Origin: Eledone cirrhosa
Lineage: Eukaryota
Direction of reading: 5' to 3'
Assembly (NCBI GenBank): GCA_964016885.1
Contig: OZ024748.1
Location: forward strand, 51,956,001-52,020,000
Length of the DNA: 64,000 bases
In this document: positions 3,119-45,320 of the stretch, one piece after another
How positions within the stretch are numbered: the stretch's first letter is position 1
Layout: every line of letters starts with the position of its first letter
Translations under genes and position numbers: made by a program
Notes under the pieces: model-generated
Seen by the model: the letters and a program-made list of their open reading frames with translations, nothing else
Database searches by the model: none
Told to the model about the DNA's origin: nothing

Positions 3119-3703
3119 ATCATCATCATCATCATTTTACGTCCGCTTTTCCCTGCTTGCAAGGGTGGGATGGGTCTTATTCAGCACAGCATCTCTCCAC
3201 TCGTCACGGTCCCTCGTCATCTCCACCGTGAGCTTCAATGAACTGAGGTCTGTTCTCACCACCTCCGCCCATGTTTTTCGTGGTCTACCTCTACCACGTC
3301 TCCCTTCAACTGGCAATTCCTGGCACTTCTTCACCCATCGGTCATCCTCCATGCGCATCACATGTCCATACCACCTCAGTCTCCTCTCCCGTACACTACA
3401 TTCTATCCCTCTCAGACACAGTTTCTCTCTCAACACATTTATGCTGGGTCGTTCACGCACATTTACACTGCACATCCAACGTAGCATGCTTGCCTCATTT
3501 CTCTCCAGCCGTTGCATATCCTCTGCAGTTGCTGCCCATGTCTCACTACCATGCAGCATCGCGCTCCTCACACAGGCATCATACAACTGGCCTTTCGTAC
3601 GCAGGGAGAAACCCTTCTTCGTCAACAGAGGAAGCAGCTCCCTAAACTTCTTCCAACCCGTCCTTATTCTAGATACTATGGCCTCGGAACACCCTCCTCC
3701 CTT
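3119..3703 (-). mobile_element. RTE-clade LINE 3' fragment (RT C-terminus + (ATG)n tail)
   Basis: KGQLYDACVRSAMLHGSETW...RRLRWYGHVMRM...RGRGRPRKTW...DRDEWR; stop directly followed by ATG repeats. Confidence 0.92.
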
Positions 3704-4434
3704 GCACTATCTCAGAATTATTCAATGTTACCTTAAACACCCACTTTTTTAAAAATAAGTATGGTCAAGCCTACTACTGGTACCATGTAACCTTGTATAA
3801 CCTACTTCATGGTTGAGGGGTCAGGGACTATACAGGCTCCCCCACCAAACTTGGTCTCATGAGGAGAGTAAGTTGAACACCAACAGCACAAAAAAACAAG
3901 AGCTGTTAAAAGCAGGAATTAACTTTTCAGAATCAACATCCATCTACCCCCACTTTGGGTTAAATAGCCTCACCGACCAGCAATTGGCCAAGTGTGGTGA
4001 GTATGGCTACAACCCTTGAAGACATGACCAAAACCAAACAGAAAGCAGTGGAGCTCAACCAGAGAGTGTTTCCTCCAACAGGTATGAGACAGCCCTGGAG
4101 GTGAATTGGATTGGATGTTGTAATTTGAGGGATATTTAACTACTATTTCTAGTATATCGATCATTTAGAGCTTTTTCTAGTTGAGTTTTTGCAGGAAAAG
4201 GAAGCATTTTAAGAACTTTCCAGAAATATTTCTAACAAAAATACAAAAATTAATAAAAACAAACAGATAAAAAGAAATAAACATATAAAAACAAATTGAA
4301 ATAAATGAAAAATGAATGTAAAACAAAGAAATTGTAAAAAAAACTAGGCAAGAATTAGTAATAATTAATAACGTTATGAATTTAGAGACATTTATGATAT
4401 AATTACTGCTTTTGGAATAATTAAATCACTATTA

Positions 4435-7741: not shown

Positions 7742-7810
<69 letters not shown>

Positions 7811-7813
<3 letters not shown>

Positions 7814-8254
7814 GGGAGGGTCATATTGTTATAATATTGCCAGAAATAATAACAGAACACACTCACTGTTTGGTTGGTTTTTGCTTCTGTATCTTTTATA
7901 TCTCCATAGTTAATTTATTTAAAAATAAAAATGGTGTAGATATTACAGTACAATACAATAGGGGGAAACATAATAGTACCACTGATGATGTTGCAGATGT
8001 GCAACGAAAGAACTTTGATAGACTATATAAATATATTTATATCTGTATTTTTAACCGCTGATCAATCAATGATAAACATTGATTGCCAAATAAATTAGCT
8101 ATGGAGATATAAAAGATACAGAAGCGAAAACCAACCAAACAATGAGTGTGTTCCGTAATTATTTCTGGCAATATTACAACAATATGACCCTCCCCAAGTA
8201 TAACACTATTTGTATTGAAACACGATTTCGTATCAAAAGCCTTGCAAAACAAAT

Positions 8255-8260
<6 letters not shown>
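7811..8260 (+). mobile_element. Penelope-like/retrozyme terminal cassette, family P2 (inverted arms, hammerhead, ORF start MTLPKYN)
   Basis: 7811-7920 is the reverse complement of ~8088-8197; hammerhead between the arms; flanked by (TA)n. Confidence 0.7.
7973..8026 (+). ncRNA. type I hammerhead ribozyme (family P2)
   Basis: CTGATGA-T-GTTGCA(GATG)TGCAAC-GAAA-GAAC-TT; imperfect stem I ATAGTACCA/TGATAGACTAT. Confidence 0.75.
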
Positions 8261-8291
<31 letters not shown>

Positions 8292-8339
8292 GTGAAACAC
8301 TGGAAGGTAATATCCGTAGTGGTAGAGCACTCAGTCCAT

Positions 8340-8497
8340 GGGACGAGTTTGGTAGAAGTGGTTACACAACAGTTAGTTCACCATACCGAGAACAATTGTT
8401 TCACCTTAGCCCATTCCGAGCTGAGGATCCGCTAAGGTGAAACAATTGTTCTCAGTATGGTGAACTGTTGTGTAACCACTTCTACCAAACTCGTCCC
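8340..8497. repeat. ~67-bp inverted repeat hairpin carrying a hammerhead (family P3)
   Basis: 8340-8410 versus 8431-8497 reverse complement. Confidence 0.9.
8411..8460 (+). ncRNA. type I hammerhead ribozyme (family P3), weak stem II
   Basis: CCATTCCGAG-CTGAGGA-TCCGCTAAGGT-GAAA-CAATTG-TT-CTCAGTATGG; palindromic stem III ACAATTGT. Confidence 0.65.
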
Positions 8498-8543
8498 CTG
8501 AGTGCGATATTAACAAATGGAAACTATATTTATAAAACCAGAT

Positions 8544-8610
8544 TTATTTTATTATACATATTTCAAGGACACCACGTTAAATTATGGTGTGCTTTCATCA
8601 GACAAAATAC
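8544..8610 (-). ncRNA. type I hammerhead ribozyme (family P1)
   Basis: Minus strand: TATTTTGT-CTGATGA-AAGCACACCA..TGGTGTCCTT-GAAA-TATGTA-TA-ATAAAATA; part of an element at ~8505-8770. Confidence 0.8.
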
Positions 8611-8766
8611 AATATAGATCAGTTTTATAAATAAATATTGACATACCCTTAAAAAATGCAACCATTACTGTTGGAAGCTCCGATTTACTCCAAATACTTG
8701 TTGAGTGCTTTATATCAGTTATAAAAATATTTGCTTGTTGTATCCCAACAATTTAAATAGAACTTT

Positions 8767-8805
<39 letters not shown>

Positions 8806-8809
<4 letters not shown>

Positions 8810-9003
8810 GAACATCAGACAACATGCTTTGCAGCATATATTTATGGCCCTTTATGAACTGGGTTCAAATCTTTCCAAGATTACCTGTCTTTCACCTTTA
8901 CACGGTTGATAAAATAAATACCAGTAATGCACTGGGATCGATTTAATCAACTTTCCTATTTCGCCAAAATTGTTGGCCTTGTGCTTAAATCAGAAACCAT
9001 TAT
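8806..9003 (+). mobile_element. SINE family A
   Basis: Homologous to 921-1140. Confidence 0.8.
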
Positions 9004-9009
9004 TTCTTT

Positions 9010-9455
9010 CCCATGGAGTATGATGCAGAAGCCAGAACAGCCTGGAAAGCATTACAGTAGACAAAAGTAAAAACAAATAGAAATGAATGTATTGAGACTG
9101 ATAGCTCAAAGTTATATTAATGGAACCTAAAAATAAAAACTGCCATCACATTAAAACACAACTGACCTGGTTTGTTGTTTGGTACCAAAGATTAAAAACA
9201 TGGTATGTAGTAGAGGCCAGCAGCTCTCTTGATGTGAATGTAGAAAATAAAATAAAAGAGAAGGAAGATATCTTTGAACCATTGATGAGGAATTTGCAGA
9301 TTCAATTCCAAAAATATACTTCAGTTTCATATACATTATTAATGAAGCTACAGGATATAAACCAACCAGCCTGGAAGAAGTTATGACTGAACTTGGATTC
9401 TTGCAGAAAGAGAAAGAACAGAGCTCTTTAATTCATAAACTATTAAATGGCTGAA
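9010..9455 (+). pseudogene. fossil restriction-like endonuclease (RLE) domain of an R2-superfamily (R4/Dong/NeSL-like) non-LTR retrotransposon
   Basis: Across frameshifts: LY*WNLKIKTAITLKHN*P / VVWYQRLKTWYVVEASSSLDVNVENKIKEKEDIFEPLMRNLQ / FSFIYIINEATGYKPTSLEEVMTELGF, matching the RLE pattern HNRPD..W..(Y)xxE..D..KxxEK..Y..L..PIIxGAxG. Confidence 0.7.
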
Positions 9456-9565
9456 CGATTGTATGAGGGAGGATGGAATTTTCTTTTACATTACTAGTTT
9501 GCCACTGGAAAGGGGGTGGATCAAAATAAACTCAAAATTAAAATAAAAGATATATATATATATAT

Positions 9566-9620
9566 ATAGTCTTTCAAAGTTCTTTTCTCACACACTTGTG
9601 ACATCATCAGTGATACTGTT
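9566..9620 (-). ncRNA. type I hammerhead ribozyme (family P2), inverted partner
   Basis: Minus strand: AGTATCA-CTGATGA-TGTCACA(AGTG)TGTGA-GAAAA-GAAC-TT-TGAAAGACT. Confidence 0.65.
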
Positions 9621-9664
9621 ATGTTTCCTCCCATTGTATTACGGCAATACAACAGCAAGAAACA

Positions 9665-9718
9665 TAATAGTATCACTAATGATGTCACAGGTGTGTGATG
9701 AAAGAACTGAGAGACTAT
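9665..9718 (+). ncRNA. degenerate hammerhead (family P2; CTAATGA core)
   Basis: TAGTATCA-CTAATGA-TGTCACA(GGTG)TGTGAT-GAAA-GAAC; followed by the P2 body and MTLPKYN start at ~9922. Confidence 0.55.
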
Positions 9719-9948
9719 ATATATATATATATATTTATAAAACAAACTTTATATATATAAGTATTCATATCTATATTTTTAACTGTCGGTTAATCAATGA
9801 TAAACATTTATTGCCTGCTAAATTAATTAAAGGGATATAAAATATATTAAAGCGAAAACCAACTCAAATCAAACAGTGAGTGTGTTTTTTTTTTATATAT
9901 TTCTGGCAATATTATAACAATATGACCCTCCCCAAATATAACAATATT

Positions 9949-10070
9949 TTAGGTAGTAATATTAGTAACATGTGCTTACGCCGCATTTGGCTAAATTGTT
10001 TTCTTTAAATCCCAACTAACAGACTAATTCTATTTAGTCAAATATGGCATAAGCATATGTTACTACCTAA
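9949..10070. mobile_element. small hairpin/MITE-like insertion in the P2 ORF start
   Basis: TAGTAACATGTGCTTACGCCGCATTTGGCTAAAT versus ATTTAGTCAAATATGGCATAAGCATATGTTACTA. Confidence 0.6.
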
Positions 10071-10543
10071 TTTCCAAATTCACTAGCCATTTCTAAACAA
10101 AGCCTGTTTGTGTCTCCCTATTTCTATACATATAACAACATGTTTCAACACACGATTTCATATAAAGAAAACCTTGCAAAACAAATTCATCACCATCATA
10201 AAACAAAACCCATACACACCTATATTTATACACGACAGATTGAAAACAATTTTCAACTGGTAAATTCCATACAAAAGTTATTGGTTAACCCTAGGCTACA
10301 ATAGAAACAACTTTCCTAAGGTGCTACACAGAGGAACCAAACCTGAAACCATGTGGCCCTAAAGTGAACCACATAACTATATAGCAGAAACCGTGCATTT
10401 ATTTTACACACAGACATTATATGTACACACACACACATGTGTATGAATGCCTGTGTGTGAGTGCGTATTTGTATGTATTTATACATCCATATGTATATGT
10501 GTGTGTATAATATGTATATATTTTTATGTCCGTTTTTCCACAA

Positions 10544-10600
<57 letters not shown>

Positions 10601-11468
10601 TATATATATTCTTTTACTCATTTCAGTAATGGACTGCAGTTTTACCCTCAAACGCTGGAGAGAGTAAAGCAATGAGACAAAGTGTGTGTATGTGTGTATA
10701 TGTATACAAGAAAGAATGTGTGAGTGTGTGTATGTGTATATATGTATACAAGAACGAATGTGTGAGTGTGTGTATGTGCTTTCATTTTATATGATTGTAT
10801 ATATCCATGTATAAACATGTATATATATATGTATAAACATGTATATATATACATACATGTATAAACATATATATATATATATATATAATTACATTTGTGT
10901 GCATGTGTGTATGTTTGCGTGAGTGTGTGTGTGTATAATCATTTAAATAGGTATAGAAGATGCATATTCAGATTCCCATGAGAGTAATTTTAAATATTGC
11001 CCTCAAAGGTTAATGAGGTCACACACCTTAACAACAACTTGCACTACCACCACCACCACTACTACTACATCACCACCAACACCCCTACCAAACAACACCA
11101 CCCTCACCATACCACTACAACCATGAAATCAAACATCCTAACAAGTATCACAACCACCACAACTACTACTTTAACCAAAAAAAGATAACAACAACAACAA
11201 CAACAAATGAAAAATACTTCCAATGTAGAGTGAAAGTTTTAAATCATTGATCTCGGACAAGAAGAAATTGATTGGATTATCAAGAAAGGTTAGATGGAGA
11301 ACTGAAAATCTTGCCTAAGGCTTTATCAAGAATGGAAAGTAGCAATACGCAAGGGGCATAACCTAGATTACACTGCTTCTTTACTATGTGGTCTTATTTC
11401 TTTTTAGGCATAGAGTGGATGTATAGATTATATGTCTTTTATGTAAATAGGTGTGTGTGTCTGCATAA

Positions 11469-11511
<43 letters not shown>

Positions 11512-11687
11512 AATTTTGGAGGATGTGTCTGTGTGTGATATTTATTCATCCATTGTAAGAATAAATACAGGTTAAAAGTTAATAGTGTGGTACATGGTGA
11601 GGTTATGATTATTGTCGATCGAGTTAATTTTATTTACTTTTACATTCCTGCTTCATTATATGTATATATGTGTGTGCGTGTATGCGC

Positions 11688-11718
<31 letters not shown>

Positions 11719-11946
11719 CGTGTATGTGCGCGTGTGTGTGCGTGTATGTGCGCGTGTGTACATTAGTTATGTGTGTAACAACAGTTATAGGTGGTGCACC
11801 ATTTGAAGCACTTGATCCTGTTACGAGGTCCATTTCATTTGGGTTGTATTTCCAGTGTTCCAGCCGTAGTGTGCAAAGTGTAAATAGATTTAAATCTCTC
11901 TCTCTCTCTCTTTATATATATATATATAAATATATATATATATAAA

Positions 11947-12292
11947 GGGGGCACATGGCTTAGTGGTTAGAGCATTGGCCTTGCAATCGAAAGGTTCTGG
12001 GTTCAATTCTCACACCGGGTGATGTGTTGTTTCCTTGAGCAAGACACTTTATTTCACATTGCTCCAGTTTACTCAGCTGTAGAAATGAGATGATAGGGTC
12101 TGGGGTCCATATCATTCCACTGCAAAGTGGTCGTGGAGGTGCCACGGCAAAAAAGCACCCAGCACTCACTGTAAATGAGGTTGGTGTTAGGAAGGGCATC
12201 CAGCTGTAGAAATCAAGCCAGAATCAGTTCCTGTCCCACCCTTGCAAGCAGGGAAAAGCGGACGTAAAATGAAATGATGAAATGATGATGAT
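11947..12292 (+). mobile_element. tRNA-derived SINE family B (CORE-like body, RTE-type tail)
   Basis: A box TGGCTTAGTGG, B box GGTTCAATTCTC, CCTTGAGCAAGACACTT body, tail CCCACCCTTGCAAGCAGGGAAAAGCGGACGTAAAATGA matching the RTE 3' end at 3133-3168. Confidence 0.9.
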
Positions 12293-12319
12293 ATATATAT
12301 ATATATATATATAGTGCCG

Positions 12320-12503
12320 ATGAATTAATATTGTATCTGTATTATTTTTGACCGTCGGCCAGTCAATGGCAACATTGAGGACCGAGTAAGTTAGATCGCA
12401 GATATAAAAGACAGCGAGAAGCGAAAACCAACCAAACAGTGAGTGTGTTCTGTTATTAATTCTGGCAATATTACGCAAATATGACCCTCCCCAAGTATAA
12501 CAA
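12320..12503 (+). mobile_element. family P2 fragment (leader to ORF start MTLPKYN)
   Basis: Homologous to 8040-8203; bounded by (TA)n. Confidence 0.7.
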
Positions 12504-13431
12504 TATATATATATTAGTTGCATGTTCGTCCAAATGATCTCTTTCAGCAAATAAAGAAAGAATTATTGTTATCAATATTATTAATATATGTGTGGATGTG
12601 TAAACATGGAAGAGATATATTTATATATATATAGATATATATATATATATACACACACATGCACACACATATACACAAACACACACACACATATATATAT
12701 ATCTGCATTGTCCTAGTTTTGTATTACAAAAATAAAGAAGTGCTCAACACACCCCATATGTTAGAAGTTTGTAACATTTTGAAGTTATGTTCAGCTAAGG
12801 ACAAGATCCTACAGAATATATATTGAACCTAAACCAATTACACACACCCCCATACATAATAACGGTGATTTGCTAGACTGCCATGTATTGCCTGACAAAC
12901 ATTTAAAGAAGGAATGAACTACCCCTAAAGTTCAGGTTTTGTTACTTGCCTCCCTGAAATCCCTTCACTAAAGTGGACGTGAAATAAACACGGCAAAAAG
13001 CACCCAGCACACACTGTCAATGTGGTTGGCATTAGGAAGGGCATCCAGCTATAGAAAACCAGCCAGAAACAGCCAACCCAACTTGCCTCTAAATGGGACC
13101 CGTCTAACTCATGCTAGGGTGGATGATGATGATGATGAGTGCGTGTGCGTGTGTATACACGCACATATAGTGAGAGAATATGCTCCGAAATCATTAGACG
13201 TGTCTGTCGAACCTGGGGGTCCAGAATCAGGCAGACCCACACAATGGCTGTGTCTCGAGCTGTCTGCTAGGAAAACAATTGTAACACACAATAAATTGAG
13301 TTCAGATGCATCACTCATTTTTCGTTTTCTATTGTATCATACTCTGCTCTGTAAGAGCATAGAGTGCTCAACCAGCATACCACCTATGGAAGTATCTTAG
13401 CTACCATCAGACACACACATATATATATATA

Positions 13432-14464
13432 TCATCATCATCATTTAACGTCCATCTTCCATGCTTGCATGGGTTTGGATGGGAATTTTCCCACTTGAGG
13501 CAAGATTGGTTGACTTGCTCGTATAGGACTGTCTGGTGAGTTTTCTATGGCTGGATGCCCTTCCTAACACCAACCACGTTTACAGTGTGGACTGGGAGGT
13601 TTTTACCGTGTTACCTACACGGCCACATTACAGCATGGACTGTGTGTTTTTTTTGTCGTGACACCTACACGACCTCATTTGTTTCGGACTGGATGTTGTG
13701 GTACCAACATAACTTTACATTGAAAGGGGTGGTGTGGATGGGGTGGGGGTCGTGGGACGGGTTGTATTTTTGTTAGAGGTGCTTACTGACTGTAGGTTTC
13801 GCTTTGTACTTAGGCAAGGCGGGTCTTCTGTATTACTGTGTAGCGCCAAAGATCTCGGTCCAGTGACATTGTCTTGGAGAGGTGTAAGTGTGTGAGGTCA
13901 GAATTTATCAAGTCGTCCCAGGTTTTTCTGGGTCTGCCTACTCCGTGGCTACCGTCTATTTTTATCGCGCTGCACTTTTTTATACAGCTGTCGTCTTTCA
14001 TGCGCATAACATGACCGTACCAACGCAGTCTTCTCTCGAGTAAACAACATCTGATCCCTCTTATTCCTAATTTCTCCCTTAGTTCGTTTATGTTTTGCCG
14101 TTCACGTATATTACTACTACACATCCAGCGGAGCATGCAAACTTCATTCCTCTCCAGTCTGCGTATATCCTCTGCACACAATGCCCAAGTCTCACTGCCA
14201 TGTAACATTGCTGTTCGTATGCAGGCATCATACAGCCTGCCTTTCATTTTTAGAGAGAACCCTTTAGCGGCCAATAGTGGTATAAGCTCTCTGACTCTAG
14301 CTACTGTACTTTCAGAGCACCCTCCACCACTGCTGATTTTGTCACCCAGGTAACAGAAGGTGTCCACTATTTCTATAGAACCATTTGTGCAATGGAATGA
14401 GCTAGTATTCTGTGGGCACTTGCTGCTACTTATTGCACCTGTATTTTGGACATAAAATGGAGTT

Positions 14465-14470
<6 letters not shown>
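13432..14470 (-). mobile_element. RTE-clade LINE, 5'-truncated, with ~370-bp 3' UTR
   Basis: ORF 13810-14367 (FCYLGD...SETW...RRLRWYGHV...GRPRKTW); same family as 42815-45036. Confidence 0.92.
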
Positions 14471-14500
<30 letters not shown>

Positions 14501-14502
<2 letters not shown>

Positions 14503-14610
14503 CGAAGGAGGTGTGGTAAGGAACCAGATAGACTATAACGCACCAGAGTGCTCAGAAATAGCCGTCGAAACGGCTTGAGCTCTGCCGTCGGGGGTCAAAT
14601 ATTTTCCTGT
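14501..14610. mobile_element. family P4 cassette (hammerhead 3' half plus inverted tail piece)
   Basis: GAAA-CGGC(TTGAGCTCT)GCCG-TC-GGGG; homologous to 34791-34987 and 52234-52430. Confidence 0.65.
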
Positions 14611-14629
14611 ATATATATGTGTGTATATT

Positions 14630-14661
<32 letters not shown>

Positions 14662-15013
14662 CATGCACACACCCATATATGCACACAAATATATATATAT
14701 ATTAGAAAGTGAGGTTTTTTTTTACAAAATGAAAGATAACCGAGATGTCCTACACGAAAAAAATATATATTTGGTTCCTTTACTGGTTTCTCGCAGATGT
14801 GAGAAAAACCACAGACCCTCCATCTCAATTCTACTTTTGAAAAGCAAAAGAACAGCGAAACCGGTTTAAGGAACCAAATGAATATATATTTAAAAAAAAA
14901 AGACTCCTGTGGCATTTTCGATTTCATCTTTTTTCCTTATATATAGGCAGCTCCAACCGTTAAGGTTGTCTTTTTTTCCGGGTATGTCAATATTTATTTA
15001 TAAAACAAATCTG

Positions 15014-15079
15014 TATTTTATCTGATGAAAGCGCACCATAATTTGCCTTGGTTGCCCTTGAAATATGTATAATAAAATA
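15014..15079 (+). ncRNA. type I hammerhead ribozyme (family P1)
   Basis: TATTTTAT-CTGATGA-AAGCGCACCA..TGGTTGCCCTT-GAAA-TATGTA-TA-ATAAAATA; perfect 8-bp stem I. Confidence 0.8.
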
Positions 15080-15513
15080 AATATGGTTTTATAAATATAG
15101 TTTCCATTTATTAATATATTGTATATATATATATATGTATATGTTTATAAACATTGCATACATACATGTACATATGATATAAGAGCACATGCATGTGTAT
15201 GTATACACAGTTATAAATACTTTAAAATTCTTGCCAAGCTTACTTATTCTTGTACAATGTTGGTATTTTTAACAGACAATAAACTCATCAAAATTCTATT
15301 CTATGAAATACATTGTATTCTATAGACTAGAATGTTCCTCATTATTATTAGATTCAATTTAAGCTAATCTTACTAATATAAATAATCACATTTCTATATT
15401 ACTTAACTGCCTTCATAATTATTTCATCTAATTGGATTCATTTATAAATTGATATAAACTGATGGTTTCACTTGAGGCAACATACGTGTGTGTGTGTGCC
15501 AGTGACATATATG

Positions 15514-15545
<32 letters not shown>

Positions 15546-15629
15546 TACACACATATATATGTACAAATATATATATATATACAGGCACACACACACATAT
15601 ATATATGTACAAATATATATATATACAGG

Positions 15630-15673
<44 letters not shown>

Positions 15674-15865
15674 CATACATACATACACACACACATGTTG
15701 AACAATAAAAACAAAAGGTGAAGTGCAGTGCTTAAACAGTTCATTGTTTTACTATCGTTTCAGAAGGTTGATTGATCATGATAAATCAATATAGTGACTA
15801 ATCAATAGTAGTTATGTAGCTCCATATCATTTATGCTCCAAATCCATCTTGCCATATTCCTCAGA

Positions 15866-15906
<41 letters not shown>

Positions 15907-16389
15907 GTCATCTCACAAATAATGTCTAGAATATTATATATGTAATTTCTCTTACATATATACATGAAATTTTACAGTATTCTAAATTTCAAATGGTATT
16001 GATTGATACTCCTATATATTTGGAAACCTTTAACTTAATATAATTCTGTTTTAACAGATTAATCTGACTGAATTAATATTAACCCACAAAGACGAATACA
16101 ATTTTTACACACGCCCATATAGATGTATACACAAAAGACATACATGCACATATATGCAACTACGCATGTAAGTAAACGTTATTTGCAAATTGATTGAATT
16201 ATAAATCCACTTTTAGGAACAAGAAAATAAAGAATGCCACAGCTTTGTCTAGACATATATGGTAATGAAATAATAAAGGAACTATTTCAATGTTAAATAG
16301 TCAAACATTGACAATACATAATTGGAGAAAATATTGCCACTTATGTGCATGATCATCATTTTTCGTCTGCTTTCAATACTGGTATTTGA

Positions 16390-17500
16390 AAGCCAATCAT
16401 ATCAACCTGAGTACATGACTGGTACTCTATTTTATCAACCTCTGGAGACTGAAAAGCAAAGTTAACCTTGGTAAGGTCATCATCATCATCACCATTTTAT
16501 GTCAATTTTTCCACACTAGCATGGGTTAAATGGGTTGTCCTGTTGTGGGCGATGCTAGGTCAGGCGACCATGTCTTGCACATAAAGAACTGATTTGTGCT
16601 TGGTTTCTACAGCTGGATTCCCTTCCTAACACCAACGTCATTTATAGCGAGTACTGGGTCCTTTTTTCGTGACACCAGCATGACCACTTTACAGTGTGGA
16701 ATGTAGGATGTAAACTCAAAATGTAAAGAACCAAAACAAATATTGCTAAGCATTTGTTCAACACTATCAAATCTGCCAATCCACCACTTGTTGAGTAATA
16801 CTTTCTGAATTTGGTACAAGGCCAGACATTTTCTATAGGGGAAAGTTGATATGAACTCCAGTGGTTGACCGGTTTTATTTTAACAATGGAAGAATGAAAG
16901 AAAGATAGCCTCAAAATTTGAACTCAGAATATGAAGAGTCAAAATAAATATGGCTGAGCATTCCTTCAATGCTTTAACAACTATGCCAACCCACCACCTG
17001 TAAAATAATTGGTTCTACATTTGGCAGAAGTTCAGCACCTGGAGAGAAGGGAACAGTAGATCAAATCAACCCCAATGCATTACTGATACATTATTTTATT
17101 GATTCTGAAAGATAAAGTTAATCTCAACGAGATTTGAACTAAAATAATACAAATGGTTTCTGATTTAGACACAAGGCCAACAATTTGGAGGGGGAGTGGA
17201 AAGTTCATTAAATCAACTCCAGTGCATTACTGGTACTTTATTTTATTGACCCCATAAGAATGAAAAGCAAAGCTAACCTCAACGAGATTTGAACTCAATA
17301 TTAATAACAATGTTTCTACATTTGGCACAAGGCCAGCAATTACCCCAGTGCATTACTGGTATTTTATTTTATCGACCCCATGAGGATTAAAGGCAAGGTT
17401 AACCTCAGTAGGATTTTAACTCAGAACGTAAAGGGCCATAACTTCATGCTGCAAAGCATGGTGTCTGACGCTCTACCGATACTACCGATACAAACTCAGA
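16390..17500 (-). mobile_element. cluster of head-to-tail family A SINE copies/fragments plus a family B/RTE-tail fragment
   Basis: Repeated ACAAGGCC...CTGGTACTTTATTTTAT..ACCCC...TTGAACTCAG modules. Confidence 0.75.
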
Positions 17501-20500
17501 TAATAATAATAAAACCTGGAATTAAACAATGATACCAAAGGAAGCATCTAGATGGCCCCTCCAGTGGCTAGAAATAGTACTATCAACACCATTCATGCAG
17601 CATAATGCTCTTTATGTATAATGGCTATATCATCATCATCATTATCATCATTTAATGTCCATTTTCCATGCTAGCATTGGTTAGACGAATTGTTCTGACA
17701 TTGTGAAACAAGTTAGATCAAGTGGACAGACAGTTGTATTTAGCTGCTATCTCTAGCACTTTAAGCTCCCCCCCCCCCCATTATGGAGACTCATACTCTC
17801 ACTTTTTTAACCCCTCTTTATTAAACAATATGGTGCTTGTTAATACTTGTTGTCTTGTGTTATATCTCCAATAGGGTACCTTTCAATATCCTCTTATTTT
17901 ACTTACGAAATGTTGAAATAACATATTTACTATATATTTATAGTCAATGAACCACATATATGTTTTCTCTTTGATTCGTTTAGCATTGATCTTTGGTATA
18001 TGATGGCAAATGGCAACAAAATTTTATTACACCATATATCTCACTCAATATCCTTTACTCCTAAAAACTAAAATAAAAAAATAATGTTTGTTGATGAAGA
18101 TTTAAAACTCAGCTAATCAAACAATCATAAACGTTAATACTTTCAGTCTTTCACTAGCAAGAAGATCCACCCTACCACAGCCACTGCATCAATAAATAAC
18201 ATCAACAACAAGAAAAAAACATCTACCAAATTGGAAATGTTAAGGGTCAAGGAAAGATGTAGAAGACAGCTTTGATGGGGGTAGGGAGAAATCTTTTAGC
18301 CTCGTTAATTTTCTCATCCTTTACCTCAAACTTGTTTTTAAAACGAAACAGTGGTGAGGAGTTATTTACATAAAAAGTATCTGTTCTTAGAAACAGAACT
18401 TCAAAGGATATACTTTCTCAGCTATAAATTTAGGGTGGATCTTTCTACTCCTAAGCCTTCATGTATAAGTGTCGACAGGTGTGGATAAAACTGATTTAGT
18501 TGGGGCTATGTAATTCTTTGAAATTTGAGTTTAATGAGAGGAGAAAAAAATGTCCTCAAAACTAACAAACGTTTTTATTTTTGCATGTATGATGGGGTGT
18601 AGGCCTAAGATGCCCCCCAGCTTAATAACGCCACCTGGTCTTTAGGTGCTTTCAGCAGAGTTTACCCTGTTGCACAAGCATAAAAAATAGTTTCTTTCAG
18701 ATGTTCGAGCTGAACATCAGCCACATGAAACTCATCAGTCTGGGAAGGTCTTCAACTGTTATAAGTATAGACTTTCTTCCAATGATTATTACATAAGTTA
18801 GTTTTTCTTCTCCCAATAAATTTCTTATGAAAGTTAACAATTTTGTTATGTTTCTAATGAAATATGCCACCAACAATTTCAAAATATTTTGAAAATAAAA
18901 AGAATTTTTATAGATTTAGTAATATAATTTTCACATTATTAAACTAGTGTTCTGAACATTATAAAGGTTTTTTAGATAAATATAAACATTTTAAAACAAA
19001 AATGTTAGTATCATAGAACAAGGGGCAAATTCGGGTGTTTTGTATTAAAAGGGTTAGTCTATAGACATTCTGTATAAAGATAATAAAAAAAAAATAGTGC
19101 CAGAATATTTTTCAGAGGAAAAGAAATTTTTCTCCTTGAAATTTTCTACTTATTTCTTGTATTTTTTACTTTATATACAACATTATATTTATTTTTTATG
19201 TGAAGCAGATACATAGGTTATTGGAAATAAAATTGAAAATCAAAACAAAACAAGCAATGTGTGGTGAACATTTTTATAGACAAATAAACTGCTTTGAAGA
19301 TTTTAGAGATGAGAGGAGTTGGACATTTGTCTTTGGATTTCGTAAACAAATCCAAATAAACAAATTTGCACATGTGTGGGTATATAGTAGTACATATATG
19401 TGTGTATGTATGTGAGTTTGTATGTGTGTTTTCAGATATTGCTACTACATGTTTGTATGTCTTCTCCCAGATATTGCTCTATAACTATATATATTTGTGT
19501 GCATGTGTTCATGTGTGTATGTGCACATATATGTATGTCTTCTAGATAATGCTTTATACCTATATACCTGTGTGGGTGTTCTTGTATGGATACATACAAA
19601 TTACATAAACATACATTTGTTACCCTGAAGGATATTGCATACGAGGAGGTGGAAAATAGGAAATGTTTCTGTTACAATTGCTCATGGTTACAGATCATTC
19701 TAAGAATTGTGCAGATCCACTACCTTTGGAAAAGCATGAACATCACCACAATGTATCATAACCAATGATGATATTTTATATTTTGAGAACAATACCTTAA
19801 CGTTGGTATGAGCAACTGGTTTGAACAGATAGAGGTGAGAGTTCTGGCCGGATATGGCCGGTTTAAATGCTAAAGGGTTAATGTACACTATCCTTGTTAG
19901 GATGGGTAGGACAGTTGATTAGCAGACCTGTTTGGCTCACAAAACCGAGGTACTTAACCTACAGTTGGCAGGCACTACCCCATTATCCATAAGCTCAGAA
20001 CTCATGACTACTTTGTACAGTTTTTAAGTGTATGTGAGATAAAACCAATCAGGATAGAATACATGTATGAATGTTTGTGTCAATTGAGGTTTTGATAAAA
20101 AAAATTAGGAATGAATTATATTTACAAGAGAATATGATTTACAAAAGGTGAACCAAACCTAACAAGGTGTCATGCCTTAACATCATTGAAACTTACTCCA
20201 GGTGTATTAAAATGTAAGAAACAAATTTAACCTTTTCAGAACCACATTCTAATGTTATACACTGCCTTTCTGTCAAAGTTTAATTTTGACAATAATCAAG
20301 AATTCAGAGAGCTTTAACAAAATAGCTAACCTTTTCATTATTATGATGTTGTTTGGAACATAACTGAACAAAAGGTTCTTATTTAAAATTATGATCAGTT
20401 TTAATTGAAGTACGAACAATTTAAAATGAAGAGCTTTTGTTTCATAAAACTAGAGGGGGTTTCAGTCATGAATTCAATGGGAAATTTTACACATTCATGT

Positions 20501-20921
20501 GTAATAATGTTTTTTCAGATTCCGATTCTAACCTCAGCTGCTCAGGTATGAAGTTTTGATGGCATTGTAACAAAATCCACGTGAGACTGTATTTTTCTTT
20601 TATATTCATTCACTTTCACTCTCTCATTTATTTATTTAATTTAAATAGGTTATTGAAAACATCTACAAAAGGAAAATGATAAGCAATAGGAAATTAATTC
20701 AAAAAATTAAATATGAAAGGGAAAAACCATAATAATAATAATAATAATAATAATAATAGTAATAATAATGACGCACACAAAAAACAAACAAACTAATAAA
20801 CAAATGAAAAGGAATAACAAAAAAAAAATTAACAGTTATGAAAAAGAAATGGGCAAGGGATGTGTTATATAGGTTCATAAACTGTGGTTGGGAAATATAT
20901 ATATATATAAACCTATATATA

Positions 20922-20962
<41 letters not shown>

Positions 20963-21177
20963 ATGAGAAATAGAGAGACAAAAGAAGATAGGAATTAGTG
21001 AATGATTGTGAGGAAGGGAGAAGAATGGCAACTATAGAATTAGCTTTCATCTAAGCTTTAGACTGATATTATTGTTTGTGATAAGGATAAAAAGGAAATG
21101 AAAAAAAAGAAAAAAAATGACATCACTTTCTGTCAAGTTATAAATGAACAGAATTTACAATACCATTTAAGAATAAT

Positions 21178-21360
21178 TGTTTCTACTTTAGGCACAAGGC
21201 CAGCAATTACCCAGTGCATTACTGGTACTTTATTTTATCGACCCCGTAAGGATTAAAGGCAAAGTCAACCTCGGCGGGATTTGAACTCAGATCGTAAAGG
21301 GACGTAACTATGCTGTAAAGCATGGCGTCCAACCCTCTACCGATACTGCCAATCCACCAC
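21178..21360 (-). mobile_element. SINE family A with 21-bp target-site duplication
   Basis: ACAATACCATTTAAGAATAAT at 21157-21177 and 21361-21381. Confidence 0.92.
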
Positions 21361-21546
21361 ACAATACCATTTAAGAATAATGATACAATATGGATGAAGT
21401 TAGTGAAATTATGACATTAACTAGTAACCAAACCATTACTGTTTAATGTTTGTATGTGTGTATGGTTAGCTAAGTACAAAGTGAACACATTCACACAAGT
21501 ATCTCTAAATACATTACATATATAGATATCTCTTTCCATATACATT

Positions 21547-21592
<46 letters not shown>

Positions 21593-21716
21593 AAAGTTCT
21601 ATTTAAATTGTTGGGATACAACAAGCAAATATTTTTATAACTGATATAAAGCACTCAAGTATTTGGAGTAAACATACGATATTAACAAATGGAAACTATA
21701 TTTATAAAACCATATT

Positions 21717-21776
21717 TATTTTATTATACATATTTCAAGGACACCACGTTGAATTCTGGTATGCTTTCATCAGACA
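21717..21776 (-). ncRNA. hammerhead (family P1), stem I 5' arm truncated
   Basis: Inverted copy of 21861-21925. Confidence 0.6.
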
Positions 21777-21860
21777 GTATAGTATCCTGGAGCTTCCAAC
21801 AGTAATGGCTGCATTTTTTAAGGGTATGTCAATATTTATTTATAAAACTGTTATATATTG

Positions 21861-21925
21861 TATTTTGTCTGATGAAAGCATACCATAATTCAACGTGGTG
21901 TCCTTGAAATATGTATAATAAAATA
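21861..21925 (+). ncRNA. type I hammerhead ribozyme (family P1)
   Basis: TATTTTGT-CTGATGA-AAGCATACCA(TAATTCAACG)TGGTGTCCTT-GAAA-TATGTA-TA-ATAAAATA. Confidence 0.82.
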
Positions 21926-22339
21926 AATATGGTTTTATAAATATAGTTTCCATTTGTTAATATCGTATATATATATATATATATATAAAGTATTGCAGAA
22001 CAGATGTTGAGATTATGTCAAATAAAATGAACTCTAAGTTTGAAGCTAGACTGCAACCAAAAAAGTGTCAAGTAGTATTGTAATGCAAATGTGTATGCCT
22101 TCTATGGATATAAAGCTCTTTCAGTAGCTGTTTATTATGGTATGCACAAATACATATCTACACAAGAACATTATAAGTCATTTTCCCTGCTAAATCAGAT
22201 TTTAACCTCTCAGGCCCTGTATAAACATCATGGGTTTTTATTTGGCAATAATTTACGGCCAAATGACTTTTCAAGCTGTAACTAGTTTAGTAACCACATA
22301 CTATGCACATATTTGCATGTGTCTGTGTGTGTGTGTGTT

Positions 22340-22369
<30 letters not shown>

Positions 22370-22370
<1 letters not shown>

Positions 22371-22610
22371 CATCATCATCGTCGTTTAACGTCCATCTTC
22401 CACGCTTGCATGGGTTTGGACGGGAATTTTCCCACTTGAGGCAAGATTGGTTGTCTTGCTTGTATAGGACTGTCTGGTGGGTTTTCTATGGCTGGATGCC
22501 CTTCCTAACACCAACCACGTTTACAGTGTGGACTGGGAGGTTTTTACTGTGTTACCTATATGGCCATATTACAGCATGGACTGTGTGTTTTTTTGTTGTG
22601 ACACCTACAC
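22370..22610 (-). mobile_element. RTE 3' UTR fragment
   Basis: Near-identical to 13432-13670. Confidence 0.85.
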
Positions 22611-23106
22611 AATATATATATATATATAAACTGTCTGTGGTGCCAAGACCAGGGACACCCTTCAAAAGGTTTGCCGAACACAAGCTGAAATCGCTTGGTG
22701 TCACGGTCGGGTTTGTAACTTCCTATATATATGTATATATACACACAAACACAGAGACAAAAGCACAATTGCTGACAATCATATCCTTCTATTCCTGTTG
22801 CCATGGTGCTCATTTATACAACTCTGAACAAACTCAACACACACACACATACTTCCTTTTTTTATATATATATCAGCACATATATGGCAGCATACCTACA
22901 TAAATTACATACATACATACACACATGCATACATATTCATAAGGAATTGTTTAAAAGCATATATCAATACAAGAATAGATATTCATATGAGCACATTTTG
23001 TGTATTTGCATATACAGACACACATGTATATATTTACAAACACACACACACACAAATCTATGGACACCAGCACATATTCACACACATGCACAAACAGACA
23101 GACATG

Positions 23107-23144
<38 letters not shown>

Positions 23145-23274
23145 GCACATACATACTCATATTGGGTAAAGAAATAAACTTATACAAAGATTTTAATACA
23201 TATACATCCAGCAACATCTCTCTCAAATTGTATGAGAACAGTTATACAATCACAACCAAATCCACCCACCCAAA

Positions 23275-23325
<51 letters not shown>

Positions 23326-24290
23326 CACACATACACAAACAAACAAATTACATGCACACAATCATACGCACATATACGTGCACACATGCAGAAAGGCAGC
23401 ACTTGAATGCTTGGGAAGTTAATTTCAAACTTATCTTCCACTGGGAAATTAATTCTTTTAAATTGATCCAAGATAATTCTACCTGGGGCGAAATTCTTTA
23501 GTCTGTGAGTTACAATTAAATTGACTTATCTCCGAATATATAATTAACCAGCCTCCACACAACTCGCAGTCTTGGATTAGAAAAAAAAAATTAAAATAAC
23601 CACTACACACATACATAGATATATGAATAGAAAAATACATTTATACAAATCTATGTATATGCACATATACACATATATATGAACACACGTAAGAAAAGAA
23701 AATCACATACACACACAGACATATATATATATATATATACACTCTTAAAAGAAAATCCCAAATTGTATGCATGCATGTATTTGTGTGTATGTGATGAGTG
23801 TACACAGAGAATACATTAAAAAAAGTGAAAATTACATATAAATACACAGACACATATACATGCAGAGATCTTGGAAAAAATATCTCACAAGTGATGCACA
23901 CACAACTTAGAAGAAAAATTATACACGCATTAATATACATATATATACATACATGCTCAACCTCTCTCGCAATACAATTTTAAAATCACATACTTGGACG
24001 AAACAAAAAGATACAATGCATACATACACACACACATATATATATTCAAAGAAAATACCATGTAAATACACATATATTCATACATAAATACACAAATACA
24101 CATATACATGAAATGAAGAATGCAAGAAGAAAAACTTAAGGCAAATTTGATTATAGTTATCATTATATTACTATTATTGTTATCGTTATTATTATTATTA
24201 TTACTATTATTAACATTATCATCTTTATTATTTCTTATACTGTAAACTTTATGAATGGTAAATCTGTGTTCTATATTTTAGCATATCTAA

Positions 24291-24339
<49 letters not shown>

Positions 24340-24524
24340 ATATATATTATGATGCATTAATATATATACACTGGAATACAAATGTAGATTCTTTACAATC
24401 AGAAACATGTGCAACACATGCATGTATGTATATATATATACACATACATGTATACATAGATAATTATTAGGAAAAAACTGAAGAAATATAGATAGCTGGA
24501 AAATATAGAGAGACTGGTAGATAT

Positions 24525-24750
24525 AGCAGCATACATAGATAAATAAATATTAAAGGGAGGTTTAACATACAACCATATATATATATATACACACAAACAC
24601 ACACACATACACACAATTGACAAACCACCAAACCACAGATAAATAAATATTAAAGGGAGGTTTAACATACAACCATATATATATATATATATATATATAC
24701 ACAAACACACACACATACACACATTTGACAAACCACCAAACCACAGATGA
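24525..24750. repeat. local tandem duplication (~105-110 bp)
   Basis: AGATAAATAAATATTAAAGGGAGGTTTAACATACAACC...TTGACAAACCACCAAACCACAGAT occurs twice. Confidence 0.85.
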
Positions 24751-24885
24751 AGAAATATCAATCCATTGCTAAATATTAAAGTATGTAAGATAAAGTATAG
24801 GTGTGTGTGTGTATATATATAAATAAATATACAAACACGCACATGTAAGTATATACATACACACATGGCTTTTATATATATATAT

Positions 24886-25245
24886 ATTGTTATACTTTGG
24901 GAGGGTCATGTTGACAATAAGAAACACATGCACCAGTTGCTTTCACTTCAATTTATTACAAATTAAATTATACATTTAAAAAAATTTATAAATTTCTGGT
25001 TGGTTGGTTCCACAACCGGACGGTTGTTCACATATTGTCAAAGTTCTTTCGTCACACATTCTGTGACCTCTTCAGTGACTGGGGATTGTTTTCTTTGTTT
25101 TGTGCCTCTGCTTTGTCCTGTCCTATGCCATCTTGTTTTTGTCTGTGTTTCTTATTGGCAACATGACCCTCCCAAAGTATAACAAAATCGGTTTCAACAC
25201 ACGTTTTCAGATAAAGAATCTTGCTAAACAAATTCAGAAACGACA
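24886..25245. mobile_element. family P2-related cassette: inverted ORF-start arms around a minus-strand hammerhead
   Basis: 24887-24928 is the reverse complement of ~25144-25185; + arm reads MTLPKYNKIGFNTRFQIKNLAKQIQKR. Confidence 0.75.
25037..25079 (-). ncRNA. type I hammerhead ribozyme (P2-related)
   Basis: Minus strand: GTCA-CTGAAGA-G-GTCACA(GAATG)TGTGAC-GAAA-GAAC-TT-TGAC. Confidence 0.82.
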
Positions 25246-25286
25246 TATATATATATATATTTATAAATTTCCGGTTGGTTGGTTCC

Positions 25287-36875: not shown

Positions 36876-37484
36876 TGGTGGCTGCCAACTCGTTTTCGAG
36901 TACGGCCACTACTTTATATCCATGTAGGAGAACCCCTACTGATGCGCTGAACGAGTGTGACTTTTTAGTCCAGCCAGCGACTTGAAAACTCTGGTACAAA
37001 GACTACACTTGTGACAATTATTGACACATAGTGTTGGGCCCATGGTACCATGTGACGACAAGTGCAGAGAGATCTCCAGATATAAAGCAATGCCTGTGCC
37101 GTGAAGCTTTTATAGTGAGCAAAGGCACTGCACAAAGCCAGTCCCACTCTCTTAACCAAGATGATATTTACCAAAAAGAAGAACAAGTCAACATCATTGG
37201 ATACCATCAGGGTTGCAGGTGTTATATCAGAGTTTTCCTTCTCCTAGAATTCTGCCTTGACAAAGGCTAAGGGGTCATCTCTCCCGGTGATTTTGGATGG
37301 CCATTGACTCTTAAGAGCTCCTTTGCCCTTTGACAGGTTTTGTTTTTAGTCCTGCAGGATGTCCAAAGTCACCCTCCTCACCAAGAAACCTTGGTGGGGT
37401 TGCCAGTTTAGTCGCCAACGACCCGACCATGAGACAGGTTGTACTGGGATACATGTTACCAGTAGCACCAACTGGTGACCTGAC
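36876..37484 (-). mobile_element. non-autonomous, internally deleted RTE derivative, copy 1
   Basis: Minus strand carries an RTE-type 5'-UTR motif CTAGGAGAAGGAAAACTC and a terminal C2H2 finger [23 protein letters not shown] (36936-37007). Confidence 0.7.
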
Positions 37485-42817: not shown

Positions 42818-45036
42818 TCATCATCATCATCATCATCAACGTTTAACGTCCGTGTTCCACGCTTGCATGGGTTTGGACGGGGGTAGTCCCACTTGAGGCA
42901 AGAGTGATTGTCTTGCTCGCATAGGACTGTCTGGCAGGTTTTCTACAGTTGGATGCCCTTCCTAACACCAACCACATTTACAGTATGGGTCTGGGAGGTT
43001 TTTACCGTGTTGCCTACACGGCCACATTACAGCGTGGACTGTGTGTTTTTTTGTCGTGACACCTACACGATCTCATTTGTTTCGGCCTCGATGGCGCGGC
43101 ACCAACATAACTTTACATAGAACGGGGTGGTGTGGATGGGGTGGGGGTGGTGGTGGTGGGACGGGGTGTATTTTGTTAGAGATGCCTACTGGCTGGAGTA
43201 GGTTTTACTATATATTTAGGTAAGGCGGGTCTTCTCTGTTACTGAGTACCGCCAAAGGTCTCGGTCCAGTGACATTGTCTTGGAGAGGTGTAAGTGTGTG
43301 ATGTCGGAGTTTATCAGCTCGTCCCAGGATTTTCTAGGTCTGCCTATTCCGTGACTACCGTCTATCTTTATTGCCCTGCACTTTGTTATACAGCTATCGA
43401 CTTTCATGCGCATCACGTGTCCATACCAACGTAGCCTTCTCTCGAGTAAACAACATCTGATCCCTCTTATCTCTAATTTTTTCCTTAGTTCGTTTATGCT
43501 TTGCCGTTCACGTATATTACTGTTACACATCCAGCGGAGCATGCAAGCTTCGTTCCTCTCTAGTCTGCGTATATCCTCTGCACACAATGCCCAGGTCTCA
43601 CTGCCATGCACCATTGCTGTTCGTATGCAGGCATCGTACAACCTGCCTTTCATTTTTAGGGAGAACCCTTTAGCAGCTAATAGTGGTATAAGCTCTCTGA
43701 ACTTTTTCCAACCAGTTCTGACTCTAGCTACAGTACTTTCAGAGCACCCTCCCCCACTGCTGATTTTATCGCCCAGGTAACGGAATCTGTCCACTATTTC
43801 TATAGAACCCTCTGCGCAATTGAAAGAGCTAGTATTTTGTGGGCAATTGCTGCTACTTATTGCACCAGAGCACCGGCCACATGTAAAATCTATGTTCTTA
43901 GTTAGCTTACCTGTGATCCCACTACATCTTTTATGCACCCATACTTTGCATTTAGGACATAAAATGGAGTTTCTACCTACGCCTTTCCTACACACCGAGC
44001 ACGACCATTTCCCAGAAGGGACCGCCGCCTTGTTTTCTTTCCTACAAACTAGTACTTTGGTCTTAGCCAGGTTAATTTTAAGTCCTTTTGACTCTAGGCC
44101 GTGCTTCCATGTTTGGAATTTCTTCTCTAGCTCGGCCATTGATTCCGCTATGAGTGTCAGGTCGTCTGCGTATAGGAGTTCCCATGGGCAGCCTGTCTTG
44201 AACTCCTCTGTTATAGCCTGAAGGGTAATAATAAATAGTAGTGGGCTGAGAACAGAGCCCTGATGGACGCCAACTTTTACGCTAAACTCTTCACTATATT
44301 CGTTGTTAATTCTAACCTTGCTGACTGTTTCTTTATACATGGCTTGTATAGCCCTCACAACGCCTAGTTTTCTAAGAGCCCACCAGATAATGGAGCGGGG
44401 GACTCTGTCGAAGGCTTTCTCCAAGTCGACAAAAGCTAAGTAGAGGGGTTTACCTTTAGCTAGGTACTTCTCCTGTAGTTGTTGTACTATGAAAAGAGCG
44501 TCTGTGGTACTTTTGCCTGACACAAACCCGAACTGCATTTCATCTAGGTCAATTCTCTCTCTGATTAGTTGCGCTATTACTTTTTCCGTGACCTTCATGA
44601 CCTGGTCGATTAATTTAATGCCTCTATAGTTACTCCTATCTAGGGCGTCTCCTTTACCCTTATAACAGTTAACGATGATGCTGCTATGCCAGTCCTTCGG
44701 AACAACCCCATTCTGTACGACTTGGTTAACTATGCGGGTGACCATGTTGTGTCCCACCGTGCCAGATGCCTTCAGCATCTCAGCAACTATTTCCGAAGGC
44801 CCAGCCGCCTTACCCGTCTTCATATCCTTGATTGCCTTACTTATTATACTCCCCTCGACTAATACTGCTGGTCCCTCTATTGGGTCGATATGGGGGAGAC
44901 TGTCTTTCTCCCATTTATTCTCCTCATTTAGTAGCCTTTCATAGTGACACTTCCAAGCTACCTTCTTATCAGCGTCGGTGATGGCAAGTGTGCCATCGTC
45001 GTTTAGTACACACTTCTCCCCGACAATATCACGGGT
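42815..45036 (-). mobile_element. RTE-clade LINE, 5'-truncated
   Basis: RT ORF, ~400-bp 3' UTR and (ATG)n tail. Confidence 0.95.
43216..45036 (-). CDS. RTE reverse transcriptase (partial, no endonuclease) with PHD-finger-like insertion
   Basis: KAAGPS, YKGKGD..NYRGI, QFGF, FVDLEKAFD, GVHQGSVLSPLLF, LYADD, FRYLG; CSVC..CPKC..HKRC..CGRC. Confidence 0.9.
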   Translation of the reverse strand, partial: TRDIVGEKCVLNDDGTLAITDADKKVAWKCHYERLLNEENKWEKDSLPHIDPIEGPAVLVEGSIISKAIKDMKTGKAAGPSEIVAEMLKASGTVGHNMVTRIVNQVVQNGVVPKDWHSSIIVNCYKGKGDALDRSNYRGIKLIDQVMKVTEKVIAQLIRERIDLDEMQFGFVSGKSTTDALFIVQQLQEKYLAKGKPLYLAFVDLEKAFDRVPRSIIWWALRKLGVVRAIQAMYKETVSKVRINNEYSEEFSVKVGVHQGSVLSPLLFIITLQAITEEFKTGCPWELLYADDLTLIAESMAELEKKFQTWKHGLESKGLKINLAKTKVLVCRKENKAAVPSGKWSCSVCRKGVGRNSILCPKCKVWVHKRCSGITGKLTKNIDFTCGRCSGAISSSNCPQNTSSFNCAEGSIEIVDRFRYLGDKISSGGGCSESTVARVRTGWKKFRELIPLLAAKGFSLKMKGRLYDACIRTAMVHGSETWALCAEDIRRLERNEACMLRWMCNSNIRERQSINELRKKLEIRGIRCCLLERRLRWYGHVMRMKVDSCITKCRAIKIDGSHGIGRPRKSWDELINSDITHLHLSKTMSLDRDLWRYSVTEKTRLT

Positions 45037-45081
45037 ATATATATATATATATATATATACATACATGTATATATATATAAA

Positions 45082-45320
45082 TGGTGGTGGCTGCCAACTC
45101 GTTTTCGAGTACGGCCACTACTTTATATCCATGTAGGAGAACTCCTACCGATGCGCTGAAGGAGTGTGACTTTTTAGTCCAGCCAGCGACTTGAAAACTC
45201 TGGTACAAACACTACACTTGTGACAATTATTGACACATAGTGCTGGGCCCATGGTACCATGTGACGACAAGTGCAGAGAGATCTCCATATACAAAGCAAT
45301 GCCTGTGCCGTGAAGCTTTT
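45082..45320 (-). mobile_element. RTE derivative, copy 3 (5'-truncated)
   Basis: Matches 36876-37111. Confidence 0.75.

Follow-up and report, generated by a model that had tools for sequence, protein, structure and literature searches.

In Pen2a_Av / Pen2_Av, Penelope-like elements (PLEs) of the rotifer Adineta vaga, the pseudo-long terminal repeat (pLTR) is described as carrying the first 12 residues of the open reading frame (ORF), or 22 where an optional tail is present, the tail being found on one of two inverted arms (PMC3846280). For PAc, a Poseidon element of Anolis carolinensis, the element protein is reported to nick AT-rich DNA and to prime at two sites within the ORF, the stretch between these sites being the genomic tail; the PAc hammerhead ribozyme cleaves only with the protein and is dispensable for insertion in vitro (PMC11167929). 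Dependence of hammerhead cleavage on a dimer or on protein has also been argued elsewhere (PMC4209133). Here we describe a family of hammerhead-bearing repeats in a 64-kb window of Eledone cirrhosa contig OZ024748.1, the window being the whole stretch that was analysed: animal-type AT-rich DNA, crowded with (TA)n runs, repeats like short interspersed elements (SINEs) and fragments of long interspersed elements (LINEs). These repeats are, very probably, heavily 5'-truncated insertions of an endonuclease-type (EN+) Penelope-like retrotransposon with at least two subfamilies.

The family is represented by insertions A, B and D and by copy C. Its ATG motifs lie at 7824(-), 8184(+), 9922(+), 12481(+), 24909(-) and 25163(+), six occurrences in the window against 0.04 expected by chance, and each opens the start of a reading frame, hereafter the head. 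The parts are as follows.

7806..7929, minus strand: inverted, 5'-truncated arm of insertion A, with untranslated region (UTR) and ATG 7824, short end at about +19, running into (TA)n; 91% alike to the main arm over 122 nt.
7930..8262, plus strand: main arm of insertion A, with hammerhead, 164-nt spacer and ORF head with the long end, running into (TA)n.
7978..8019, plus strand: hammerhead of insertion A, minimal type I with an intact core, from descriptor and model scans.
8184..8255, plus strand: ORF head of subfamily A, 24 codons (pLTR part plus tail) without a stop codon of its own.
9563..9640, minus strand: inverted arm of insertion B, with a damaged hammerhead and a TA run just beyond; 84% alike to the forward arm over 79 nt.
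9572..9614, minus strand: damaged hammerhead of the inverted B arm, from the model scan; this copy was absent from the first-pass annotation.
9646..9949, plus strand: forward arm of insertion B, with damaged hammerhead, spacer, ATG 9922 and short end at about +28.
9672..9714, plus strand: damaged hammerhead of the forward B arm, from the model scan.
9950..10066, no strand: imperfect hairpin of 117 nt between the B pieces, seen by folding, at the short end point of B; no second match in the window.
10067..10189, plus strand: B2, an older 5'-truncated piece, now diverged, that joins UTR-like sequence to the second part of the ORF head.
10190..10370, plus strand: sequence that may continue the ORF beyond B2 in decayed form, 37 more codons without a stop.
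12314..12506, plus strand: copy C, spacer and ATG 12481 with short end at about +26, lacking a hammerhead, TA runs on both sides.
24884..25143, minus strand: main arm of insertion D (second subfamily), with hammerhead, 127-nt spacer, ATG 24909 and short end at +26, running into (TA)n.
25037..25079, minus strand: hammerhead of insertion D, minimal type I with an intact core; stems I (4 bp) and II (6 bp) are perfect.
25144..25244, plus strand: inverted, 5'-truncated arm of insertion D, with 19 nt of UTR, ATG 25163 and long end (+72 to +82), running into (TA)n; 96% alike to the main arm over 45 nt.
25257..25286, minus strand: fragment repeating 24982-25011 of insertion D, from a sequence match.

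This anatomy has two recurrent aspects. First, the copies have two end points within the reading frame, at about +19-28 nt or +72-82 nt, mostly in (TA)n, and all seven of the ends examined touch TA runs; the ATG itself lies between 127 nt (D) and 164 nt (A) from the hammerhead. Second, A, B and D each have a head-to-head, inverted, 5'-truncated arm joined at the 5' end, with inversion junctions 48 nt (A), 26 nt (B) and 64 nt (D) upstream of the hammerhead. In two of these insertions, A and D, the inverted arms have unequal end points, the long end belonging to the hammerhead arm in A but to the opposite arm in D. Inverted repeats bounding A and D within (TA)n would also suit a TA-targeting miniature inverted-repeat transposable element (MITE) with terminal repeats that begin with ATG by chance. 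However, the arms do not end at the same position (+19 or +26 versus +72 to +82, some 50 nt apart in both A and D), arm length is variable and copy C is one-armed; moreover, a MITE would leave both the codon-level conservation and the conserved hammerhead core unexplained, and we consider it very improbable.

In layout the family matches the rotifer elements. As described for Pen2a_Av / Pen2_Av, the tail extends the ORF start (from 12 to 22 residues there, from about 8 to 24-27 here) and the head-to-head inverted arm is shorter at its 5' end; here, by contrast, the arms enclose no ORF body, the tail measures about 45-55 nt as against 31, and any target duplication is masked by the (TA)n at the insertion site. 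With PAc, as reported, the family shares two end points in the ORF start, AT-rich targets and a hammerhead in the pLTR. [quoted passage not shown]

The head behaves as coding sequence. Its A and D versions differ at 18 of 72 nt, distributed 3/3/12 over codon positions 1/2/3 (binomial p 0.004); the proportion of synonymous differences (pS) is 0.68 against 0.14 for nonsynonymous ones (pN; Fisher p 1.3e-4), and the two peptides share 18 of 24 residues (simulation p 0.00024). The remaining two sense frames of the head show no excess of pS over pN. Codon-level conservation, on which the first-pass annotation had made its account depend, is thus present in the comparison of A with D. The two subfamilies are 77% alike in the hammerhead and 75% in the head but only 46% in the spacer, no better than shuffles (45.5%), so hammerhead and head are conserved islands. 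Third positions differ at 1 of 6 sites in codons 1-7 versus 6 of 11 in the later conserved codons, a sample too small for any claim of nucleotide constraint.

Both peptides quoted in the first-pass annotation translate as written there. Of the four copies said to begin the same peptide, those at 8184 and 25163 carry all 24 codons, whereas those at 9922 and 12481 end after 6-9 codons, as do 7824 and 24909, leaving the full peptide in two of the six ATG copies. Purifying selection on 24 codons, together with the failure to find any longer protein, could be taken to indicate a retrozyme-like element selected for a stand-alone 24-residue peptide. This seems to us scarcely credible: the frame lacks a stop codon of its own and passes into unrelated flanking DNA, and four of the six copies stop at codon 6-9. 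Furthermore, non-LTR retrozymes are defined, in the account given in 10.64898/2026.07.22.740005, as head-to-tail tandem hammerhead units, whereas the present copies are single or in inverted pairs.

Turning to the hammerheads, a strict minimal-hammerhead descriptor gave two matches in the window, whereas all 200 windows produced by local resampling gave none. Scanning the window with a model based on four copies recovers 7978-8020(+), 9572-9614(-), 9672-9714(+) and 25036-25079(-), plus one weak extra match (12.7 bits). In A, the core is at 7982-7988 and stem II at 7990-8005, stem III consists of 2 bp with a 2-nt loop, and stem I has one mismatch; hammerhead numbering predicts a cut after 8015, and in D the predicted cut is between 25041 and 25040. 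In the 9676 copy the CUGANGA box carries a substitution and two bases are missing at the cleavage triplet, and in the 9572-9614 copy the GAAA box and the first stem II pair are damaged, so the core is intact in two of the four copies and is not, as had been proposed, constant.

All three stem II sequences listed in the first-pass annotation were recovered, at 7990-8005(+), within 9672-9714(+) and within 25037-25079. The last of these had been placed upstream of ATG 25163; it belongs to the minus strand and the ATG in sense with it is therefore 24909(-), while 25163(+) lies on the inverted arm. The compensatory changes suggested for stem II do exist as paired changes, but they are limited to two adjacent pairs, both from copy A. 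Over all four sequences, which are related, three of 12 pairs are changed on both sides (the two adjacent pairs in stem II and one in stem I), a level reached by 13 of 500 shuffles, on an alignment that misplaces the 2-nt gap in the forward B hammerhead copy.

These motifs resemble the minimal type I hammerheads of metazoan PLEs as set out in PMC4209133, in their 6-bp stem II, 4-bp stem I and tiny stem III, in the extra base after A9, the G10.1-C11.1 pair and the 15.2-16.2 pair, and in the occurrence of opposite-strand motif pairs within 100-700 bp. They differ from the hammerheads described there in that loop 3 is AA, so that a swapped duplex would contain two A-A mismatches. Since stem III (2 bp, 2-nt loop) is so small and is missing from the predicted folds, cleavage would need a dimer or protein. 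In Rfam, no hammerhead family matched at gathering score or among 150 of the 180 matches ranked by E-value, and the only match at gathering score was tRNA-like.

To what extent do reads and contigs show the same ends? Both were aligned to the 371-nt stretch 24880-25250 at a threshold of 82% likeness. Among the contigs of run X1, 11,454 of 16,285,364 align, with similar summed depth over hammerhead and head, although summed contig depth is not copy number. Among the restriction-site-associated DNA (RAD) reads of run X23, in which depth is skewed by restriction sites, 132,653 of 12,467,656 align. Of 4,303 forward reads, 2,266 end at 25234, which is ATG+72, and the 3,248 loose ends at this position agree only 0.35, indicating that this is where most copies give way to unrelated AT-rich DNA. 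A contig from X4 matches 25159-25243 with one difference and follows D to +81, so the long end is variable. A second pile of X23 ends, at 24991 (15,550/42,116), may represent copies whose end lies about 50 nt beyond the predicted cut, or else a variable AT-rich patch.

The first-pass annotation took these repeats for a Penelope pLTR whose tail extends into the 5' part of the ORF. Codon conservation and reads stopping at ATG+72 support this idea, and it is further borne out by the two in-frame end points and the one-sided long end. The fragment at 25257-25286 also ends near 24991, a possible third end class. X4 comes from an organism labelled B, and 29 of its contigs align; we do not claim a second host on this basis, given that raw reads under the same organism label (X21) gave 13 poor partial matches, none on hammerhead or head. 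No RNA run was listed among the sequencing runs that carry the repeat, which has no bearing on whether it is expressed.

Our statements on X23 variants rest on 40 of 82 variant rows. In the D hammerhead, the four variants among these fall at N7, in loop 2, in loop 3 (where a GA variant is present in 40% of reads) and at the cleavage-site base (U to A, still allowed). In the head there is one synonymous change, carried by 47% of reads, and one base that reverts a state private to D.

The very high abundance seen in X1 (11,454/16,285,364 contigs) bears on a refinement of the EN+ PLE explanation, of the same class, in which the repeats are a dedicated non-autonomous derivative, consisting of pLTR and ORF head, that multiplies by means of the parent protein in trans, the parent being perhaps rare or extinct. 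Consistent with this, A, B and D all stop 26-64 nt upstream of the hammerhead without reaching coding sequence, no parent was found in protein databases, and the pLTR alone is reported to be enough for mobilisation in trans (PMC3846280). On the other hand, the junctions differ among A, B and D and arm lengths range from 45 to 122 nt, as expected of independent truncation, and the abundance is subject to the same caution over contig depth. We treat this version as possible, though short of an even chance.

In the broader reading of truncated EN+ PLE insertions, what would the route to such copies be? On current data we infer a parent supplying reverse transcriptase (RT) and endonuclease, two priming sites and an active ribozyme. 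The template would be a longer-than-unit transcript, in which the 3' hammerhead of one unit is continued by the next unit's 5' UTR and ORF start, after the model of PMC11167929. The element protein would nick AT-rich DNA, and reverse transcription would begin at one of two sites within the ORF, about +19 to +28 or +72 to +82. Copying would then proceed back through UTR and hammerhead, and stop or invert 26-64 nt upstream of the latter. The outcome would be a head-to-head pair with only one arm bearing the longer end, that is, a tail of about 45-55 nt. The hammerhead, apparently unable to form stem III alone, would need a second copy or protein help. The peptide would be the N-terminus of the parent polyprotein, under selection in parents, and short copies would yield no useful translation. 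Priming near +26 or +72 on longer-than-unit RNA, followed by truncation with inversion, could account for every structure seen.

EN+ PLEs have one ORF that joins a telomerase-like RT to a GIY-YIG endonuclease, and their clades (Penelope/Poseidon, Neptune, Nematis, Hydra) are told apart by RT phylogeny and the linker zinc finger. Judged from its architecture, the element probably works like an EN+ PLE end, of which three structural features were found: a pLTR with the ORF start and an optional tail at one end, an inverted 5'-truncated head-to-head copy, and a minimal type I hammerhead. Among other PLEs, those of the Hydra clade, including Hydra-1_Obim, resemble it in (TA)n targeting and in a hammerhead near the 3' end, but the hammerheads listed for that clade have a stem III of 3-4 bp and other sequences (PMC8557442); between the start of Hydra-1_Obim and the head there is a faint likeness, by eye only. 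[quoted passage not shown] We nevertheless rule against a Naiad, since Naiads are described as lacking canonical hammerheads (PMC8557442) and a hammerhead is present here; searches of that paper's supplement gave no match to the head. Penelope families have been reported in an octopus, in a paper whose main text carries no hammerhead mention (PMC13282606).

We sought the parent element with the peptide, as the first-pass annotation had proposed, but as a handle it recovered no autonomous parent from the protein databases searched; a 24-residue query gives protein searches weak power. A homolog search among longer proteins with the two heads as query produced 18 candidates, and 140 once the B2 frames were added, none of which scored, and a search at near length returned only P0003-P0005. 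Two look-ups in the ESM Atlas gave no usable match, a metagenome peptide scan gave 595 pattern matches of which none was confirmed, and Pfam searches of the heads and three B2 frames gave nothing above cut-off. DNA motif scans found no match in viral or in prokaryote genomes. The sole metagenome match to the DNA motif (L001) was rejected as chance: it lies in coding sequence that is GC-rich and prokaryote-like, and neither a hammerhead nor a UTR accompanies it.

B2 offers a possible route further into the ORF. Its UTR aligns with a score of 45.5 against a shuffled mean of 18.9, a value that 0 of 500 shuffles reach, and its head carries a 2-nt loss and a 2-nt gain. The 10190-10370 stretch may possibly be a decayed continuation of the element's ORF, though protein, ESM Atlas and Pfam searches gave it no supporting match; it may bear some likeness to PLE N-terminal motifs.

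Several results weigh against assignment to an EN+ PLE. First, no RT or GIY-YIG sequence linked to the head was found in the window frames or in the protein databases searched. A motif scan of 296 frames in the window met one LINE-type RT frame and no PLE-type frame, and Pfam likewise gave two LINE-type RT frames and no PLE-type frame among 94 window frames, a hand-picked set drawn mostly from the 193 frames of at least 55 aa and sparse beyond 44 kb. A profile search of 1.84 billion representatives returned three proteins (58-79 aa) with matches confined to the head and diverging after it, which are perhaps best read as further tails, not parents. Second, the folding energy of the hammerhead is close to that of shuffles (z about -1), and the variants spare core and stems among the 40 of 82 rows, the rest of which might conceal core or stem changes. 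Third, one antisense frame of the head shows a weaker excess (pS 0.47 vs pN 0.18), as expected because the codon register is shared. Fourth, folding predicts no stable stem-loop for the head (z -0.26 and +0.53), and the tail of about 45-55 nt is longer than the 30-40 bp given in the papers; positions, the longer tail and the lack of a stable stem-loop together weaken a close match to the anole PAc.

As the enzyme is unseen, the class assignment rests on architecture alone, and the hammerhead and head might instead derive from another retroelement class, such as an endonuclease-less PLE or a site-specific LINE. However, the combination of an inverted head-to-head arm with a one-sided ORF-start tail is described as PLE-specific (PMC8557442, PMC11167929), and no telomeric-repeat stretch was noticed adjoining the hammerhead; we think such an origin improbable.

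The window contains other elements. A second repeat family, probably another PLE-type family, is present at 8500-8780(-), 14930-15140(+) and 21590-21990 (an inverted pair), with a hammerhead-like core box at 8601(-), 15022(+), 21773(-) and 21869(+); its stem II region is longer, and its copy at 21.6-22.0 kb consists of two arms that meet head to head within (TA)n. At 58960-59010(-), a short element between TA runs contains a third hammerhead-like motif, unrelated to the others, whose stem II is 4 bp long. A looser likeness to the hammerhead core at 18690-18740(-), where the stem II region is long, may be chance. Directly after insertion A comes an inverted-repeat element (8280-8510) with a central hairpin at 8383-8459. 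The LINE-type RT frames are at 43219-45117(-) (RVT_1, E 2e-31), where a PHD-finger match follows the RT domain, and at 47629-49536(+) (RVT_1, E 1e-31); fragments at 3140-3706(-) and 13813-14463(-) resemble, by eye, the C-terminal part of the 43219-45117 frame. A SINE family has tRNA-like heads at 60303-60370(+) and 11956-12013(+), and a short repeat between long TA-rich arrays at 36939-37109(-) gives a weak C2H2 zinc-finger match below the Pfam cut-off.

The arrangement described here is already known from other animals, and it represents no new kind of element or mechanism. The family itself was not found in the literature searched, nor in the supplement of PMC8557442; Repbase, Dfam or cephalopod repeat libraries may hold it. 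We consider it rather doubtful, though worth stating, that it is an abundant self-propagating non-autonomous PLE made up of hammerhead, UTR and 24 codons, with both priming sites set by the head sequence and kept across subfamilies whose UTRs have diverged. If this were so, its thousands of copies would form a natural record of where PLEs prime and invert and of which hammerhead variants survive, with priming positions unlike those of the anole element. Independently of this, the family, if an EN+ PLE, would confirm for a further lineage that the tail of a PLE consists of the beginning of the element's own ORF; the 72-nt head would provide a codon-validated probe with which the parent may be retrieved from an assembly; and the many copies would allow genome-wide counts of end points and hammerhead variants to test two-site internal priming.

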